From Mobula birostris (lineage: Eukaryota), in assembly GCF_030028105.1 (NCBI RefSeq), contig NC_092391.1, forward strand, positions 44,799,223-44,863,222: a stretch of DNA of 64,000 nucleotides, written 5' to 3'. The notes beneath the pieces are model-generated. The model was not told where the DNA came from. It worked only from the letters and a program-made list of their open reading frames with translations, and searched no databases. The translations under genes and the position numbers were made by a program. Below, one piece after another: positions 34,812-59,430 of the stretch (its first letter is position 1; each line of letters begins with the position of its first letter).

Positions 34812-36789
34812 CTAGAGCACAAGGTCAAAGTATGAAGTGGCAGATAAAAACAAAATCACAGAGGCAACCCCTCTTCTCCCAGCTTCCTAACGCTCCTGGC
34901 TCTGTTGGCTGTACATATCTAAACCTGCCAGCGGGTTATACGCAGAAGAGACTCTTACAGCATCAGATCTCTGTTGTACAGACTCTGTGGCCCACTGGAG
35001 ACCCATTTACTGTAATCCAATCCTATTTCACTCTCCTCACAATTCCTTCAAACTCCACCACTCCTCTCCCCCACTACGAGATTCTAACACTCGCGCAGAA
35101 ACCAGGGAAGAGATTACAGCAGCCAATAAACCACCCATCCCTGGGATGTAAAAGGAAACTACAGCACTTCGAGGAAACCCAGACAGTCAGAACAAACTCC
35201 ACACGGAGAGGACTGGGGGGTCAGGAGTGAACCTGTGTTGCTGGCACTACAAACCAGCATCACAACCAGCTTCTGTCACCTGTCACTTAAATTCCCAATC
35301 CCATTCCAACCTACCAGTCTGTGGCCCTCTGTATTGCAAAACTGAGGTGCCCCGCAGCTTAAGGAACATCTGCTGGGCAGGTTGCAACCTCCTGAACTCC
35401 GTAACTTGATTTCTCAGTCTGTGGCTGTTGACTACCTGTAGTATTAGTCCAGCCTAACCTGTGAGCCTCATCTCCCTTTCCTGCATTTCACAACTCCCGC
35501 AGTCTCCAACCAGATAACCAGGCTCACAGCTTATCCCCATCGCAACGCTCCACCAAGTTTTTTTTTTAACAGCTAAGCAGACCAACTGTTGTGAGCAGGA
35601 AATTTTTACACGGCCTGAAAACTGCACGGCACTTTAATACTAACATTGTATTAAAGAAAGTTCAAGCAGCACGGCAACAAAGGCTACGTGCACGGGAGCA
35701 TTTCAGTCACTGCGCGGCCGCACACCCACACAGCTCAGAGGGGACAGTGCCCCCCGTGGTCACTTCGGTTTTGTCCGAATGCTCCTGGCTCTGCTGGCTG
35801 GACATAACTGAACTTCCCAGCGTGTTATACTCAGAAGAGGCAGGGAAAGTCAACAGGAAACGACACCATTCCAGCTTGTTACACAGAATGTCAGAGACAT
35901 TCCCTCTCCCCCGACACCCCCTGAAGCTTTCCTCACTTCGTCCTGAGACGTTCACTTTGTTGCTCTTCTCACAAATGTGACCTGAGCACATTTTGTTCAT
36001 ATTTTAGATCTGCAGTATATTTTGGATTTTCAGCTCGACCAGCTGTGTTCCCGCCCCCATCCCACCCCACACACACACACTCACACTTATGTATGGAAGT
36101 ATTAAGGTAGCAGCACATGAAAAGGAAGTGGGCCCCTCAGGATTAAATAAAGGCATGTTTCAACACAAATTTACAAAGTTTTTAAGCAATCTGATTTTAT
36201 TAGTAAATGGGGATCTATTATCAGACCAGAGAAGGTGGAAGAGGACATTCCTAAATAACAAAATCTTTCAGTCCATCCGCTCTCTCACTGAGTGATTGAT
36301 TCCATTACAGCCCCTCAGTGAATGAAACAGCCTGTACCTGTACAAGACAACACTGAGGCACGGGCTGGCATTTTTTGGCTAACACAGTGCACAAGATGCA
36401 GGGTCACCAGCAAGAAAGCTGATTCTCACCACCTGTACGTGATTCTCAGCGGCCCGTGCTGGAGAACGTCATGCTGAACGCTGATTAGGCACATGGATCG
36501 TGGTTTGGTGTTGGCTTAGGCATCCTGCCACGTCAGGCAGACAGAGGTTCTGTGTAACGTGCTGGAATGGTGTAGCTTCCTGTTGACTTTCCCAGTCACG
36601 AGAGAATCACAGGATGAACAACTGCGGCCCACGGGCGAGTGGAGCAAATCACATCGCAGGACAGGCCAGAGTAACACTCAGATCCAGCCAACAGCCCAAC
36701 CCTTGTCACGCTGCCTCTGCCCACCCGGAGCTCGGATCCATCAGCCCCTCGTATCCACCATCAATGCCCCAACATCTATCACTACACCT

Positions 36790-38535
36790 GACCCCATCCC
36801 CCTCCCAACCCCCCCAGACCACCTCCTTCCCCCCATCCCCCCCCAAACCCCCAGACCACCTCCTTCCCCCCATCCCTCTCAGACTACCTCCTTCCCCCCA
36901 ACCCTCTCGGACCATCTCCTTCCCTATACCCCTCCCAACCCCCACAGACCACCTCCTTCTCCCCCATACCCTCCCAACCCCCAGGACCACTTCCTACCCC
37001 CATCCCCCTACCAAACCACTTCCTTCCCCTCCACCCCCCTCCCACCCCCAGACCACCTCCTTCCCCCTTCCCCCATCCCCCTCGGACCACCTCTTCCCCC
37101 TCCCAACCCCCCGACCACCTCCTGCCCCCCATCACCCTTGGACCACCCCCTTCCCCCATCCCCCTCCCAACCCCTCAGGACCACCTCCTTCCCCCCATGC
37201 CCCTTGGACCACCCCCTTCCCTCAACCCTCTCCCATCCCCCCAGACGACCTCCTTCCCCCATCCCTCTCAGACCACCTCCTTCCCCATCCCCCTCCCAAC
37301 CCCCCAGACCACCTCATTCCCCCATCCCCCTCTCAACCCCCCAGACCACCTCCTTCCCATCTCCCTCCCAACCCCCCAAACCACCTCATTCCCCCATCCC
37401 CCTCCCAACCCCCCAGACCACCTCATTCCCCCATCCCCCCCAACCCCCCAGACCACCTCCTTCCCCCTTCCCCCTCGGACCACCTCTTTCCCCCTCCCAA
37501 CCTTCCAGACCACCTCTTCCCCCTCCCAACCCCCCGACCACCTCCTGCCCCCCATCACCCTTGGACCACCCCCTTCCCCCATCCCCCTCCCAACCCCTCA
37601 GGACCACCTCCTTCCCCCCATGCCCCTTGGACCACCCCCTTCCCCCAACCCTCTCCCATCCCCCCAGACGACCTCCTTCCCCCATCCCTCTCAGACCACC
37701 TCCTTCCCCATCCCCCTCCCAACCCCCCAGACCACCTCATTCCCCCATCTCCCTCTCAACCCCCCAGACCACCTCATTCCCCCATCCCCCCCAACCCCCC
37801 AAACCACCTCCTTCCCATCCCCCTCCCAACCCCCCAAACCACCTCATTCCCCCATCTCCCTCCCAACCCCCCAGACCACCTCATTCCCCCATCCCCCCCA
37901 ACCCCCCAAACCACCTCCTTCCCCATCCCCCTCCCAACCCCCCAGACCACCTCCTTCCCCATTTCCCTCCCAAACCACCTCCTTCCCCTCCATCCTCCCA
38001 CCCCAGACCACCTCCCCCCCGATCCCCCTCCCAAACCACCTCCTTCCCCATCCAACCCCCCAGACCACCACCTTCCCCCAATCCCTCCACACCACCCCCT
38101 TCCCCCATCCCCCTCAGACGACCTCTTTCCCCCTCCCAACCTTCCAGACCACCTCCTTCTCCCCCCATACCCCTCAGACCAGCTCCTTCCCCCATACCGC
38201 TCCCAACCCTCTCAGACCACCTCCTCCCCTCAACCTCCCAAACCACCACCTTCCCCCAACCCCCTCAGACCACCTCTTCCCCCCAACCTCCCAAACCACC
38301 ACCTTTCCTCCATCCCCCTCGGACCACCTCCTTCCCCCTCCCAACCCTCCAGACCACCTCCTTCCCCCCCAACTTCCCAAACCACCTCCTTCCCTTCCAT
38401 CCCCCTCCCACCCCCAGACCACCTTTCCCCACCCCTCCCCCATCCCATTTCACCTCCTTCTTCCCCATCCCCTCCACCATCCCAGACCCCCTTCCCCATC
38501 CCCATCCACCATCCCAGACCCCCTTCCCCATCCCC
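36790..38535. repeat. C-rich minisatellite A (about 35-37-bp units, ccccatccccctcccaaccccccagaccacctcctt) with an approximately 423-bp higher-order duplication
   Basis: Visible tandem units; the marker atcacccttggacc recurs at 37131 and 37554. Confidence 0.9.
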
Positions 38536-38539
38536 ATCC

Positions 38540-39212
38540 ACTCCCTCCCCTCGGATCTCCTTGCCCCCATCCCCTCCCTCCCCTCCGATCTCCTTGCCCC
38601 ATCCCCTCCCACCCCTCAGATCTCCTTGCCCCCATCCCCTCCCTCCCCTCCGATCTCCTTGCCCCATCCCCTCCCTCCCCTCGGATCTCCTTGCTCCCAT
38701 CTCCTCCCTCCCCTCGGATCTCCTTGCTCCCATCCCCTCCCACCCCTCCGATCTCCTTGCCCCATCCTCTCTCTCCCCTCGGATCTCCTTGCTCCCATCC
38801 CCTCCCTCCCCTCGGATCTCCTTGCCCCATCCCCTCCCACCCCTCGGATCTCCTTGCCCCATCCCCTCCCACCCCTCGGATCTCCTTGCCCCATCCCCTC
38901 CCACCCCTCGGATCTCCTTGCTCCCATCCCCTCCCTCCCCTCCGATCTCCTTGCTCCCATCCCCTCCCTCCCCTCGGATCTCCTTGCCCCATCCCCTCCC
39001 ACCCCTCGGATCTCCTTGCTCCCATCCCCTCCCTCCCCTCCGATCTCCTTGCTCCCATCCCCTCCCTCCCCTCGGATCTCCTTGCCCCATCCCCTCCCAC
39101 CCCTCGGATCTCCTTGCCCCATCCTCTCCCTCCCCTCGGATCTCCTTGCTCCCATCCCCTCCCTCCCCTCGGATCTCCTTGCCCCATCCCCTCCCTCCCC
39201 TCCGATCTCCTT
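38540..39212. repeat. C-rich minisatellite B (32-33-bp unit cccatcccctccctcccctcggatctccttgct, about 20 copies)
   Basis: GATCTCCTT recurs every 32-33 bp. Confidence 0.92.
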
Positions 39213-39327
39213 TCCTCCGCACGCTCTCCCAGAAGCCGAGACTCCCACTCCCCAGCACCCTCTCGAACACCCCCAGACGCATCATCCCAGCAGCTCCTTG
39301 CTGCCCCTCATCGGACCCACTCTTTAC

Positions 39328-39601
39328 CGCGATCCCGCCACCTCCGCAGGGTCTCGGCGTCCGTCCGGCACACGCCGCCCACCACGTCCTCGGGCAGCGG
39401 CTCCATCAGACCGGGCAGTGGCGCTTGACCGGCGGGCCGGGGCCGGACGGCCGCCTCGCAGTGAGCCCGCAGCTCGGCCGGTTCCTGCTGTTCCAGCGAA
39501 ACCACCAGCGCCCTGCGCTCGGCATCCGACAGCTGCGGCCAGAACCTCAAGACCTCCGGCTGCCCGGCCTCGGCCAGCAGCCGCTGTGCCACCTCAAACA
39601 T
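39328..39601 (-). CDS. UAP1L1: UAP1L1 coding exon 1 (274 nt): MFEVAQRLLAEAGQPEVLRFW...LRRWRDR(G)
   Basis: ATG at 39601, with AGQxxxLRFW and MEPLPE motifs and a G|gtaaag phase-1 donor. The nine exons sum to 1479 nt in one open frame. Head-to-head with SAPCD2 as in mammals. Confidence 0.93.
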
Positions 39602-39673: not shown

Positions 39674-39800
39674 AGGGGGCGGGGCTGGAGGACAGGGGGC
39701 GGGGCTGGAGGACAGGGGGCGGGGCTTGAGGGCATGGGCGGGGCTTGAGGACATGGGCGGGGCTTGAGGACAGGGGCGGGGCCTGAAGTGGGCGGGGCGA
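39674..39800. promoter_or_regulatory. UAP1L1 promoter: tandem array of seven GC boxes (GGGCGGGGC)
   Basis: Boxes at about 39677, 39697, 39717, 39736, 39755, 39774 and 39790, 75-200 bp upstream of the ATG. Confidence 0.8.
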
Positions 39801-40026
39801 GAGACACAAAACGATTCGAATAAATCTGGAGTGGGGGAATATCTTGGGGGATGGATTGATCGGGAAGGTTGTAGGATTCAAGGAATATGGTGATGGTGTT
39901 CAGGTTTGTGGTCTGCTGGGATGGTGGAACAGGCCCAAGGTACTGAATGTCCTGTCTTGTTCTTTTTTTCTCATATCCTGATGAAATAGCTTAAACTCCT
40001 TAAATCTAATTTACATTTATATAAAC

Positions 40027-40219
40027 GGGGTGTATGGGGTGTCAGGGAGGGGTAGCACCTCTGGTGGGGAACATGTCGCATCCTTTTCAAGGCGGCTTGT
40101 CCACTTTTGGTCCCCACCTGGCACTCAGCTCTCACCTGTGGCTCCCCATAGCTGTTTGCATGCGACAGCGGCCAGACCCCGGGCAACGGCTTTGACAAGC
40201 CGGCTAAACCAGGTGAGGG
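40027..40219 (+). ncRNA. Putative HDV-like self-cleaving ribozyme at the element 5' end
   Basis: Hand-folded: P1 40027-33/40174-80, P2 40131-38/40210-17, P3 GGC/GCC, P1.1 CC/GG, GGGCAAC junction, P4 CGGCTT/AAGCCG, J4/2 GGCTAA with C40204. Confidence 0.72.
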
Positions 40220-40534
40220 TGGCCGACGGGTCTCAAACCCTCGATGAGATAGGGAGTTGACTATCCCAGCATGTGACGACAGACTCCGGCGGATTGAGCG
40301 GACGAGGCCAATGGAAGGTCCAACGGTCAAGAAGGCGGTCTCTGCAAGCGTCGTGGAACGTGTAGAGCAGGACAAAACACAGTAGACGTCCCAGTCATCC
40401 ACTGCGCCTAGTCCCATCTCCAGCCGTCTCGACTCTGTCTTGCCACTGGATCCAGATGGGAATTGGGAAGAGAGAGTGAGGCTGACGCTGCGCAACTCTC
40501 CCTCACTTAAATCCTAATCACGACGGACGAACAC
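40027..40534 (+). mobile_element. Full-length 508-bp non-autonomous retroposon with perfect 14-bp TSD
   Basis: ACATTTATATAAAC at 40013-40026 and 40535-40548. CpG-rich, with no recognisable coding capacity or pol III boxes. Confidence 0.85.
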
Positions 40535-41486
40535 ACATTTATATAAACCCTTTCATTACTTCGTGAATCACAAAATGCATTCCTTTGTGTGTGAACTCCC
40601 ACAGAGATGGAACTGGACATGTTGGCATGGATTTATTAGAGAACTCTCCGCTCTCCTTCAAAGCCGTGCCAGGACGGTAGCAGCCCAGGTGAAGGGTCTT
40701 GGCCTCTCCGAATAGATTTTGATTCCCTTTACTGATGCTGCCCCAACCCCACTGGCTACTCCAGCGGCTTGGTTTTGTTTTGCTCCGGGGACCGCCATCT
40801 GCAATGTGGGTCTCCGGGGATTCCTTCCATTCCCGATAGGACAGACTGGACTCTGCTTTCAGCTTCCTCCTGAGGGTCTGATCTGTATTTGAAGCCCTTC
40901 TCGGTTCAGTCCAGCCTACGCCTGACCGAGGACAAGAATGCTAAGCCTCTGCTGGACCAATAATAACCAACCTGTGATGTCAATAACCAACGTCGGTAAG
41001 CACCCGCCACGAATCACAGAGCAGACAGTTAAGGCTGGAATTGAGTCGGTGACCGAACCCGGTGCTTTCTTCAGCCGGATAGGATTGAGGGTGGAGGAAA
41101 GGTGCAGGATATCCGTGCCGTACTCATTCCCCGAGAGTCAGTTGAGGCTGCTGGCGGGCGGCCTGGCGGAACGAGGTCAGCCCCAGATCGCCCACTCCCA
41201 GGCGCCGCAGCTCGCTGCTCTGAAAGCACAGCTTGTCTGGAAGGAAAACTGGGGGCGCCTGTTCTGCAAAAGCAAAGGCAGGCTCGTTCCAGCACATCCC
41301 CGCATTACCGATCCAGGATCTGAAATTGGAAAGAACCCATCTTTGTAATTTCCCCCGACAACACTTGCTTTTGTCGTGTAAGCACTTGCGGAATGTTTTG
41401 TATAGATTCCTTAAAAACAGGTTATTTGATGCCAACCTTGCGTAACGCCAATGTATCCTAGTTTGGACTAGCTGGGGGGAAAACTG

Positions 41487-42400: not shown

Positions 42401-43768
42401 CTGTGGAAGACGTCCTGCTTCAGCCCTGTGCCGAAGACGCCGCACCCCAGTGGCCTCAATGACTACAGACCGGTGGCATTGACCTCCCACATCATGAAGA
42501 CCCTGGAGAGACTTGTTCTGGAGCTGCTCTGGCCTATGGTCAGACCACACTTAGATCCCCTCCAGTTCGCCTACCAGCCCCAACTAGGAGTTGAGGATGC
42601 CATCGTCTACCTGCTGAACCATGTCTATTCCCACCTGGACAAGCCAGCGAGCACTGTGAGGGTCATGTTTTTTGACTTCTCCAGTGCGTTCAACACCATC
42701 TGCCCTGCTCTGCTGGGGGAGAAGCTGACAGCGATGCAGGTGGATGCTTCCCTGGTGTCATGGATTCTTGATTACCTGACTGACAGACCACAGTACGTGT
42801 GCTTGCAACACTGTGTGTCCGACAGAGTGATCAGCAGCACCGGGGCTCCACAGAGGACTGTCTTGTCTCCCTTTCTCTTCATCATTTACACCTTGGACTT
42901 CAACTACTGCACAGAGTCTTGTCATCTTCAGAAGTTTTCGGATGACTCTGCCATAGTTGGATGCATCAGCAAGGGAGATGAGGTTGAGTATAGGGCTACG
43001 GTAGGAAACTTTGTCACATGGTGTGAGCAGAATTATCTGCTGCTTAATGTGAAAAAGACCAAGGAGCTGATGGTAGACCTGAGGAGAGCTAAGGTACTGG
43101 TGACCCCTGTTTCCATCCAGGGGGTCAGTGTGGACATGGTGGAGGATTATGAATTGACAATAAACTGGACTGGTCAAAGAACACTGAGGCTGTCTACAAG
43201 AAGGATCAGAGCCGTCTCTATTTCCTGAGGAGACTGAGGTCCTTTAACATCTGCTGGACGATGCTGAGGATGTTCTACGAGTCTGTGGTGGCCAGTGCTA
43301 TCATGTTTGCTGTTGTATGCTGGGTAGCAGACACCAACAGAATCAACAAACTCATTCGTAAGGCCAGTGATGTTGTGGGGATGGAACTGGACTCTTTGAC
43401 GGTGGTGTCTGAAAAGAGGATGCTGTCTAAGTTGCATGCCATCTTGGTCAATGTCTCCCATCCACTACATAATGTACTGGGTGGGCACAGGAGTACATTC
43501 AGCCAGAGACTCATTCCACCGAGATGCAACACAGAGCATCATAGGAAGTCATTCCTGCCTGTGGCTATCAAACTTTACAACTCCTCCCTTGGAGGGTCAG
43601 ACACCCTGAGCCGATAGGCTGGTCCTGGACTTATTTCATAATTTACTGGCATAATTTACATATTACTATTTAACTATTTATGGTTCTATTACTATTTATT
43701 ACTTATGGTGCAACTGTAATGAAAACCAATTTCCCCCAGGATCAATAAAGTATGACTATGACTATGAC
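42401..43768 (+). mobile_element. 5'-truncated Rex1/Babar-type non-LTR retrotransposon
   Basis: ORF with NDYRPVALTS, FDFSSAFNTI, GAPQ..VLSP and KFSDDSA. 3' end gatcaataaag(tatgac)3. Confidence 0.92.
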
Positions 43769-57348: not shown

Positions 57349-59430
57349 ATACTTTATACTTTATTGTCGCCAAACAGTTGGTACTAGAATGTACAGTCAT
57401 CACAGCAATATTTGATCCTGCGCTTTCCTCTCCCTGGATTACAAATATTAATTATTAAAAATAGTAAAAATTAGTAAATACTAAAAATTTAAATTATAAA
57501 TCATAAATAGAAAATAGAAAAATGGAAAGTAAGGTAGTGCAAAAAAACCGACAGGCAGGTCTGGATATTTGGAGGGTACGGCCCAGATCCGGGTCAGGAT
57601 CCGTTCAGCAGTCTTATCACAGTTGGAAAGAAGGTGTTCCCAAATCTGGCCGTATGAGTCTTCAAGCTCCTGAGCCTTCACCCGGAGGGAAGAGGGATGA
57701 AAAGTGTGTTGGCTGGGTGGGTCATGTCCTTGATTATCCTGGCAGCACTGCTCCGACAGCGTGCGGTGTAAAGTGAGTCCACGGACGGAAGATTGGTTTG
57801 TGTGATGTGCTGTGCCGTGTTCACGATCTTCTGCAGCTTCTTCCGGTCTTGGACAGGACAACTTCCATACCAGGTTGTGATGCACCCTAGAAGAATGCTT
57901 TCTACGGTGCATCTATAAAAATTAGTGAGGGTTTTAGGGGACAGACCAAAGTTCTTTAGTTTTCTCAGGAAGTAAAGGTGCTGGTGGGCCTTCTTGGCAG
58001 TGAACTCTGCTTGGTTGGACCAAGTTAGGTCATTTGTGATTTTGACCCCGAGGAACTTAAAGCTTTTGACCTGTTCCACTTGCGCACCACCGATGTAAAT
58101 TGGGTCGTGCGGTCCGCTACTCCTTCTGAAGTTAACAACTACACAATCATGGGTGTACAGTGAGTACAGCAGGGGGCTGAATATACAGTCTAGTGGGGCA
58201 CCGGTGCTCAGAGTGATTGTAGAGAAGAGCTTGTCCCCTATTTTTACAGCCTGGGTCCTGTCTGTGAGGAAGTTGAAGATCCAGCTGCAGATCTGAGTGC
58301 TGAGGCCCAGGTTCCGGAGCTTAGGAATCAGTTTATTTGGAACGATGGTATTAAAGGCAGAGCTGTGGTCAATGAAAAGGAGCCTTATGTATGCGTCTTT
58401 ATTCTCCAGATGTTCTAAGGAGGAATGTAGGGCCAGAGAGATGGCATCTGCCATTGACCTGTTGCTCCGGTAGTTGAATTGCAAAGCGTCGAGGTTGACC
58501 GGTAGGCTGTGGTTGATGTGTGCCATAACCAATCCCTCGAAGCACTTCATAGCAATTGATGTCAGAGCCACAGGTCGATAGTCATTCTGGCATGCCACCT
58601 TGCTCTTCTTCGGCACTGGGATTATCGTTGCCTTCTTAAAACACGAGGGGATCTTAGACTGAAGCAAGGAGCAGTTGAAGATGTCAGCAGACACTCCAGC
58701 TAGCTTGCTTGCACAGGCCCGGAGAACCCGTCCTGGGATGCCATCTGGGCCCGTCACCTTCCTTGGATTTATCTTCAGGAAGGCCCTTCTAACGTCCTCC
58801 TCGGTGACGATGAATCTCGATGGCACCAGGTCCGGTTCATCTGGAGGGAGCGGGACACTCCTCTTCGGTTCGAATCTTGCGTAGAATACGTTTAGTTCAT
58901 CAGGAAGAGAAGCACCGCAGTTATTGATATTCCCAGCCTTTTCTTTGCACCCAGTGATCTCATTTAGACCCTGCCATAGCCTACTGGCATCCCTCTGGTT
59001 AGCCTGGGCTTCTAACTTGGCTCGATATTGCCTCTTGGTGCCCTTAATGGCTTTCCAGAGTTCACGTCTGGAATCTGTGTAGCGACTGGTATCCCCGGAC
59101 CTAAAAGCCACAGCTCTAGCCTTCAAAAGGGACTTGACCTCATAATTCATCCAAGGTTTCTGGTTAGGGAATACCCGGATCGTCTAGCGAGACACACAGT
59201 CCTCCATGCATTTCCAAATAAAGTCCGTGACAGCTGAGGCATACTCATCGAGGTTAGCTGCTGAGTGCTTGAATACTAACCGGTCCACCGATTCAAAGCA
59301 GTCACGGACAACCTCATCCGTTTCCTCCGTCCAACGCGACACTACTTTTGACACCGTGACCTCCCGCTTCAGTTTCCGTTTGTAAGCTGGGAGGAGGAGT
59401 ACGGCCTGATGGTCCGATGGTGTCGGATCT
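57349..59430 (-). mobile_element. 5'-truncated Rex1/Babar retrotransposon inserted into the 39-bp array
   Basis: 490-aa ORF at 57678-59150 with GPDGIPGR, NDYRPVALTS and FIDHSSAFNTI. 3' tail caataaagtataaagtat. Confidence 0.93.

Follow-up and report, generated by a model that had tools for sequence, protein, structure and literature searches.

A bipartite RTE-derived retroposon family whose head is predicted to fold as an HDV-like ribozyme with a hairpin in L3

The stretch of DNA analyzed here (64 kb; hereafter, the window) carries at 40013..40548 an insertion that raises two questions: where does such an element come from, and is its first base also the first base of a self-cleaving RNA? The original prediction described a promoter-adjacent, SINE-like, non-coding retroposon of 508 bp between perfect 14-bp TSDs. 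The TSD proved to be real. The direct repeat, placed by motif and assigned to no strand (left copy 40013..40026, right copy 40535..40548), occurs only twice in the 64-kb window, and in the related organism F a contig (run X18, record 9) passes directly from 40026 to about 40554, carrying a single TSD copy and no element. Thus, the boundaries in the window are those of an insertion, and the empty site confirms them independently. Family comparison revealed that 40027..40534 (plus strand) is one copy of a bipartite non-autonomous RTE element, here named family 1. The length of 508 bp is correct for this copy but not for the family, whose full copies measure about 560 nt, with two hairpins and a (CAA)n-type tail at the 3' end.

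In the 4.0-Gb genome of the host, 3,247 candidates for family 1 were found and 40 of them were scored; the 39 scored besides the window copy show 95-96% identity over about 496 nt. Searching the genome with a core pattern of 32 specified bases gave at least 2,021 exact matches, whereas the reversed control gave 0. The count covers sister families as well and is a lower bound. The copy number of family 1 is in the thousands. Divergence from the family-1 majority has a median of 2.5% among the other copies, a rough figure taken from best hits, and is 3.9% for the window copy.

To map the starts, we picked 29 copies by their last 78 nt alone, which avoids bias at the 5' end. Of these, 22 start no more than 6 nt from G40027 (G1), the other seven begin further in, and none starts at +8 to +12, where the P1 strand repeats. 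Contigs of two related organisms (159 in one, 47 in the other) leave the family sequence for unrelated flank at 40027, and contigs matched to an intact copy have their listed 5' loose ends at -2 to +2. The expectation that the family's 5' ends coincide with P1 G1 is therefore borne out by both the 3'-picked copies and the contig junctions. Cleavage at the second GGGGTGT (40036) was considered and rejected: none of 52 copies starts at +8 to +12, and in the nested layer the P1 register at 40027 is favoured over the repeat by about 11 kcal/mol.

TSDs of 8-16 bp were present in 35 of the 45 copies examined; 26 of them abut G1 and nine have 1-14 extra bases. Junctions are similarly variable in R2 elements with self-cleavage at the 5' end (PMC3774820). 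The base preceding G1 is T in 34 of 47 copies, possibly through preferred targets or an untemplated A added to the cDNA, and G in three. A cap copied into cDNA appears as G, and the rarity of G at this position argues against cap-copied 5' ends. It should be mentioned that some copies (L012, L020, L007, L183) repeat a few of the element's first bases immediately 5' of G1, and that twin-priming-like 5' inversions occur in the short family and the RTE LINEs alike (L055, L122, L134, L135, L230, L256).

A classical SINE, with Pol III transcription and a small-RNA head, was also considered and rejected. No tRNA gene was found in six family loci; the element lacks a Pol III B box and has a single loose A-box-like match and a T4 run at +59; and no small-RNA head in Rfam matched the window copy or the intact copy L002 at E up to 10. 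The longest common frames in the family have 92-110 codons. The term non-coding holds in that there is no RT or endonuclease frame, but many copies contain a 110-codon ATG frame from +8. It is frameshifted in the window copy, and we rejected it as a gene because it is absent from sister LINE heads.

An autonomous LINE sharing both ends of the element, as had been anticipated, was found in the same genome. Three loci (L264-L266) were found with a pattern that combines the family 5' part with a motif lying deeper in RTE 5' UTRs; they are 92.6-95.3% identical to family positions 2-517 (L264 from position 46) and run on into an endonuclease-RT frame. The far end of L264 is 93% identical to positions 519-562, and the same 3' end was found in the parent 3' copies. 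All three parent copies are frameshifted. Since both LINE ends match the family, the element is an internally deleted RTE: the first ~517 nt and the last ~45 nt of the LINE joined together. In the window copy, the rest of the RTE 5' UTR segment occupies 40220..40522 (plus strand; 91-94% identity to the parent copies). The designation SINE-like thus survives in part: the family is short and starts at P1 G1, but it derives from an RTE by internal deletion and is not a new kind of SINE. Full copies have the hallmarks of bipartite non-autonomous RTE elements, namely a 5' part, a 3' part with tail, TSDs and no RT or endonuclease frame. For the parent 3' end there were 413 candidates, and 23 copies have a median divergence of 4.8% from their own majority; against 2.5% for the short family this makes the parent apparently somewhat older, both figures being rough and drawn from best hits. 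Where the LINE 5' and 3' parts meet, the sequence makes up a perfect hairpin of 11 bp (L002:1997-2035 and further copies of family 1), which mimics a weaker one at the corresponding position of the parent 3' end.

The frame hits, together with matches of the 5' UTR and the 3' end to named Repbase RTEs (supplement of PMC5786205), place the partner LINE in the RTE clade. Endonuclease and RT lie in one frame in the cousin L123, to which the parent is 50-77% identical, in pieces. Segment 40220..40522 matches the 5' UTRs of Repbase RTE-11_PSi and RTE-2_CPB printed in the supplement of PMC5786205; family positions 356-505 are about 93% identical to positions 370-519 of RTE-11_PSi, counted by eye (10 mismatches and one gap in 150, offset 14 nt). 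This head may also be present in the turtle element RTE-11_PSi, and a horizontal transfer is conceivable (window 40382-40522).

Besides the parent, the genome contains a second RTE with a related head. Of its 30 loci, 22 show a 73-80% match to positions ~1-380, and in 29 RTE frame hits lie downstream in the same orientation. A third, younger, CAA-tailed RTE has a 955-codon endonuclease-RT frame (L123) and is similar to family 1 over positions 232-505 (74-77%) and in the 3' end (~81%). This young RTE (L122-L138) was rejected as the parent, because the 74-77% similarity is restricted to 232-505 and no head is present in the 9 of 17 regions reaching its 5' UTR. Its lack of a head means that this RTE lineage can move without one. 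The protein supplier of family 1 could be either the parent RTE or the younger cousin. Four other RTE-like families from a PF20049 search have different tails, and none is the partner. At the 5' ends of the youngest RTE (L123, L125, L126, L127, L130, L135) the ribozyme head is replaced by GC-rich, CpG-island-like sequence of variable length. We also noted about twenty near-equal PF20049 matches in paired orientations at G000:C38:14.8-17.3 Mb, which suggests a large segmental or tandem repeat with an RTE fragment. Two further short families (2 and 3) share the head at 68-81%. In many family-3 copies (L204, L213) the 5' part of a ribozyme-headed RTE gives way, ~390-530 nt after the head, to another 3' part and tail; this tail swap resembles the R2/R1 hybrid SIDEs.

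The fold of the head was tested with a hand-drawn structure on 29 heads chosen for intact motifs from 62: 10 of family 1 (including the window copy), seven of family 2, eight of family 3 and four of the second LINE. Of 1,665 cells drawn as paired, 96% can pair, compared with 38-51% in slid-partner controls; the 0 of 500 shuffles is not a probability, the structure having been drawn on the same sequences, and the sequences represent three lineages only. Every motif of the original prediction was found where it had been placed, namely P1 (40027-33/40174-80), P2 (40131-38/40210-17), P3 (40140-42/40171-73), P4 (40187-92/40197-202), the L3 hairpin (40151-55/40165-69) and C40204.

On the plus strand, the predicted ribozyme opens with the 5' strand of P1 (40027..40033), and the clustered 5' ends of the copies point to cleavage 5' of G40027. 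The J1/2 insert that follows (40034..40128) has 96.9% of its cells paired. Its closing helix (40037-46/40117-26) would hold the second GGGGTGT away from P1; family-level changes in this helix occur on one side only, and the inner helices differ between the hand drawing and RNAalifold. In the 29-head alignment, the P2 strands lie at 40129..40139 and 40208..40219, with 10 of 11 pairs invariant. P2 probably extends by a U40139-A40208 pair with C40209 bulged, which would leave J4/2 with the canonical five bases 40203-40207. The 5' strand of P3 (40140..40142; alignment and family majorities) leads into eight HDV-type L3 bases (40143..40150), with the U20 equivalent at 40143, the P1.1 CC at 40144-45 and the G25 equivalent at 40148. 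After the inserted hairpin come the 3' strands of P3 and P1 (40171..40180, from family comparison), the P1.1 GG with J1.1/4 (40181..40186, from the alignment), the P4 hairpin (40187..40202) and J4/2 (40203..40207), which contains the predicted catalytic C40204 and the A78 equivalent at 40207. A40186, invariant in the alignment, is placed like A43 of HDV, opposite G40203 (G74); in genomic HDV these two bases pair (bioRxiv 2022.09.22.508989).

Conservation is strongest in the core, where the three family majorities agree in 48 of 49 columns (J1/2, 75/98; J1/4 and P4, 9/20); comparison of these sequences thus supports an HDV-type core conserved across the three families. Among 70 family-1 copies the HDV-equivalent residues were kept as U20 in 70, G25 in 61, C75 in 68 and A78 in 69, and the predicted catalytic C and the A78 equivalent are the same in all three majorities. 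The consensus was expected to repair two defects of the window copy, and it does: full-length copies have C at 40175 in 68/70 and G at 40148 in 61/70. All core pairs and residues are kept in 19 of the 70, or in 25 if position 1 is ignored. Covariation is limited to P4, in which four of six pairs change on both sides, three of them family-wide, and J1/2; P1, P2 and P3 are nearly invariant and therefore provide none. P1.1 is the weakest helix (81% paired): its second pair, which lies in a CpG, is broken in 11 of the 29 aligned copies, and at this position in family 2 the A form (9) is at least as frequent as the G form (7), and the mirror C-to-T form does not occur. RNAalifold is unable to form pseudoknots; in its preferred fold, an extended P3 uses up bases of P1 and P2, and the U20 equivalent is paired with G40170, a possible misfold. 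No Rfam HDV-type family matched the window copy or L002 at E up to 10, with weak below-threshold hits only. Thus, of the features of HDV-like ribozymes, the nested double pseudoknot and a 5' end at the first base of P1 are present, and the catalytic C75, A78 and U20-G25 equivalents are present in the family but not all in the window copy, which has A at the place of G25; an L3 of 7-8 nt is absent.

The inserted hairpin, with one unpaired G, occupies 40151..40170 (plus strand) and has a stem of 5-6 bp and a loop of 7-9 nt. With it, L3 reaches 28 nt (eight HDV-type bases, the 19-nt hairpin and one G), as compared with 7-8 nt in HDV and CPEB3 (bioRxiv 2022.09.22.508989). The hairpin is present in all three families and both LINE heads; its stem is constant and 97% paired, and its loop varies between families in sequence and length. 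Among the 29 heads no family-level compensatory change was found in it, and one double change occurs in a single sequence. Its presence in both headed LINEs means that it predates the short family, and by this comparison it is an inheritance from the RTE LINE, not a SINE-specific feature. The suggestion that the hairpin is atypical stands, given the length of L3 and the lack of an Rfam match. The literature searched describes no insert in L3; the figures and supplements of Ruminski 2011 and Webb 2009/2011 may show one. HDV-like ribozymes of RTE LINEs were reportedly the subject of the work of Ruminski et al. in 2011. The hairpin follows the U27-equivalent position, which we take to be looped out in the HDV crystal structure. 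In family 1 the loop contains a six-base palindrome (40157-40162) that could allow loop-loop pairing and is not kept in family 3. In our view there is an even chance that an active HDV-type ribozyme here tolerates a whole helix in L3 by the active site, and that this variant, invisible to current models, heads several vertebrate RTE LINEs and thousands of miniatures; turtle RTEs with a ~93% identical 5' UTR may have it too.

We observed a bipartite origin, a precise 5' start, TSDs, a (CAA)n-type tail, core conservation between families and covariation in P4. The reading that we consider probable is that family 1 is an internally deleted RTE whose head folds as an HDV-type ribozyme with an L3 hairpin, likely cuts itself out of host read-through RNA and is then copied back into DNA by RTE protein. 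The source RNA would be a host read-through transcript, within which the head would fold and cut 5' of G1. The protein of the parent RTE or of the younger cousin, with its 81%-similar 3' end, would bind the 3' stem-loop and insert a copy by target-primed reverse transcription. The L3 hairpin would point away from the active site and be tolerated. RTE ribozymes and bipartite RTEs are both already in print (PMC5786205).

The precise 5' ends would equally fit a head that is an internal Pol II promoter starting at +1, the HDV-like fold being a relic or a second function as in trypanosome Pr77. Pr77 is described as a dual promoter-ribozyme (PMC3383444), and a long conserved 5' UTR body is common even to the headless RTE (74-77%). 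We nevertheless regard such a promoter as unlikely, since conservation is concentrated on the HDV catalytic positions, P4 covaries and an extra G before G1 is rare (3/47). It is more doubtful still that the fold is HDV-derived with the L3 hairpin acting as an off-switch or killer, so that an extended P3 forms and cleavage needs protein or refolding or does not occur. RNAalifold and single-sequence folds do extend P3 at the expense of P1 and P2, and known L3 loops have 7-8 nt; however, the pseudoknot is beyond what these programs can score, three families and two LINEs, which differ by 20-28%, have all kept the hairpin along with every catalytic position, and the 5' ends stay at G1.

The window copy itself is probably dead, judging by its sequence. 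It differs from the family majority at 19 sites and is more diverged than 59 of the 70 other copies. A40148 replaces the G25 equivalent (G in 61/70 copies), and G40175 is a private P1 mismatch (C in 68/70). The same G-to-A change in L3 left no detectable cleavage in the Nasonia R2 ribozyme, whereas in HDV it does not fully abolish cleavage (PMC3774820). Of the RTE 3' end, a 12-nt remnant is left (40523..40534, plus strand) after a 52-nt deletion between ACG microhomologies, which accounts for the length of 508 nt. The deletion removed both 3' hairpins, and so this copy is unlikely to seed new ones. Among inserted copies, non-CpG decay is 1.6% in the core and 1.5% elsewhere; no selection was seen in this comparison of core and rest, and core conservation therefore reflects the source elements, not use by the host.

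The promoter is context for this copy only. The first coding stretch of a UAP1/UAP1L1-type gene (39344..39601, minus strand), divergent from the element, matches PDB UDP-GlcNAc pyrophosphorylases at E 1e-6, the best match being a UAP1/UAP1L1 chimeric chain; a gene of this type suggests a vertebrate host. About 230 nt upstream of the element there is a GC-box array (39676..39799, no strand assigned), and the upstream DNA is a CpG-rich promoter (63% GC, 8 GC boxes in 900 nt). The contigs of two guessed-RNA runs (X1, X4) cover the host gene 5' region to 39682/39691 and nothing over 39695-40009, which we did not count as evidence. The upstream DNA of the 70 other copies has a mean GC content of 42% (maximum 51%), with at least two GC boxes in one of the 70. 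The proposed link between the element and the UAP1L1-type promoter is therefore not supported: adjacency is peculiar to the window copy, unlike any of the 70 others, was rejected as a family trait, and is likely incidental. This placement, divergent and so close to the array as in 0/70 other copies, is what could suggest that the window copy was co-opted to cut or end divergent transcripts from the promoter. We find this extremely improbable in view of the G25-to-A change, which abolished cleavage by the Nasonia R2 ribozyme (PMC3774820), the P1 mismatch, the high divergence of the copy (above 59/70), the absence of the element at the orthologous site of a relative, and the neutral decay after insertion (1.6% against 1.5%, non-CpG).

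Release by a ribozyme with a borrowed LINE protein is, as a whole, already known from R2 SIDEs and NARTc. The closest structural parallels of family 1 are the bipartite RTE elements RTESINE1/2, WALLSI3, MAR4_MD, RTE-N2_Lch and Bov-A (Kojima 2018, PMC5786205), which likewise combine an RTE 5' UTR with a short 3' end, lack a small-RNA head and have a microsatellite tail. In the available part of that paper RTE ribozymes are cited in general only and no fold was seen for the bipartite elements, whereas here the head is mapped and the parent lies in the same genome; the P2 motifs of family 1 were not found in its supplement as available. Drosophila R2 SIDEs (Eickbush and Eickbush 2012, PMC3414825) are also internally deleted (~530 nt), with an HDV-like ribozyme at the first base. 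They show SIDE/LINE compensatory changes and variable 5' junctions, and their self-cleavage has been demonstrated, whereas it is predicted here. R2 SIDEs are rDNA-site-specific and of low copy number (PMC3414825), unlike family 1, which is dispersed, RTE-derived, present in thousands of copies and equipped with the L3 hairpin. NARTc/SIDER of trypanosomatids (PMC4035085, PMC3185411) are similarly dispersed non-autonomous retroposons with a 5' HDV-like ribozyme, but belong to the L1Tc/ingi clade and have a 77-nt head that is also a promoter, with no L3 insert in the part of PMC4035085 available. The order of P1, P1.1, P2, P3 and P4 is common to the RTE HDV-like ribozymes (via PMC5786205, PMC6765202), genomic HDV and CPEB3 (bioRxiv 2022.09.22.508989). 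Also in common are the U20, G25, C75 and A78 equivalents and the J1.1/4 A opposite the G before the catalytic C; the differences lie in L3 (7-8 nt, against 28 nt with a 19-nt hairpin in family 1) and in G1-U in place of G1-C.

If the head cleaves, HDV-like ribozymes would have in L3 a third site, besides J1/2 and P4, that accepts a peripheral helix, and any search with L3 set to 7-8 nt would count too few of these ribozymes in animal genomes. Host nascent transcripts could also be cut by thousands of scattered copies whose core is intact. Two RTEs in this genome have the ribozyme head, as do three short families, and one younger RTE lacks it; this is a natural comparison for the point raised by Kojima 2018 (PMC5786205), why RTE-type LINEs give rise to bipartite miniatures that keep the extreme 5' end.

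Two further features of the window were noted. A long C-rich tandem repeat lies at 36520-39240, in the first-intron region of the UAP1/UAP1L1-type gene. At 42401-43228 (plus strand) and 57678-59183 (minus strand) there are decayed RT frames of another LINE group, unrelated to the element; both match PF00078 and the second also PF09004.
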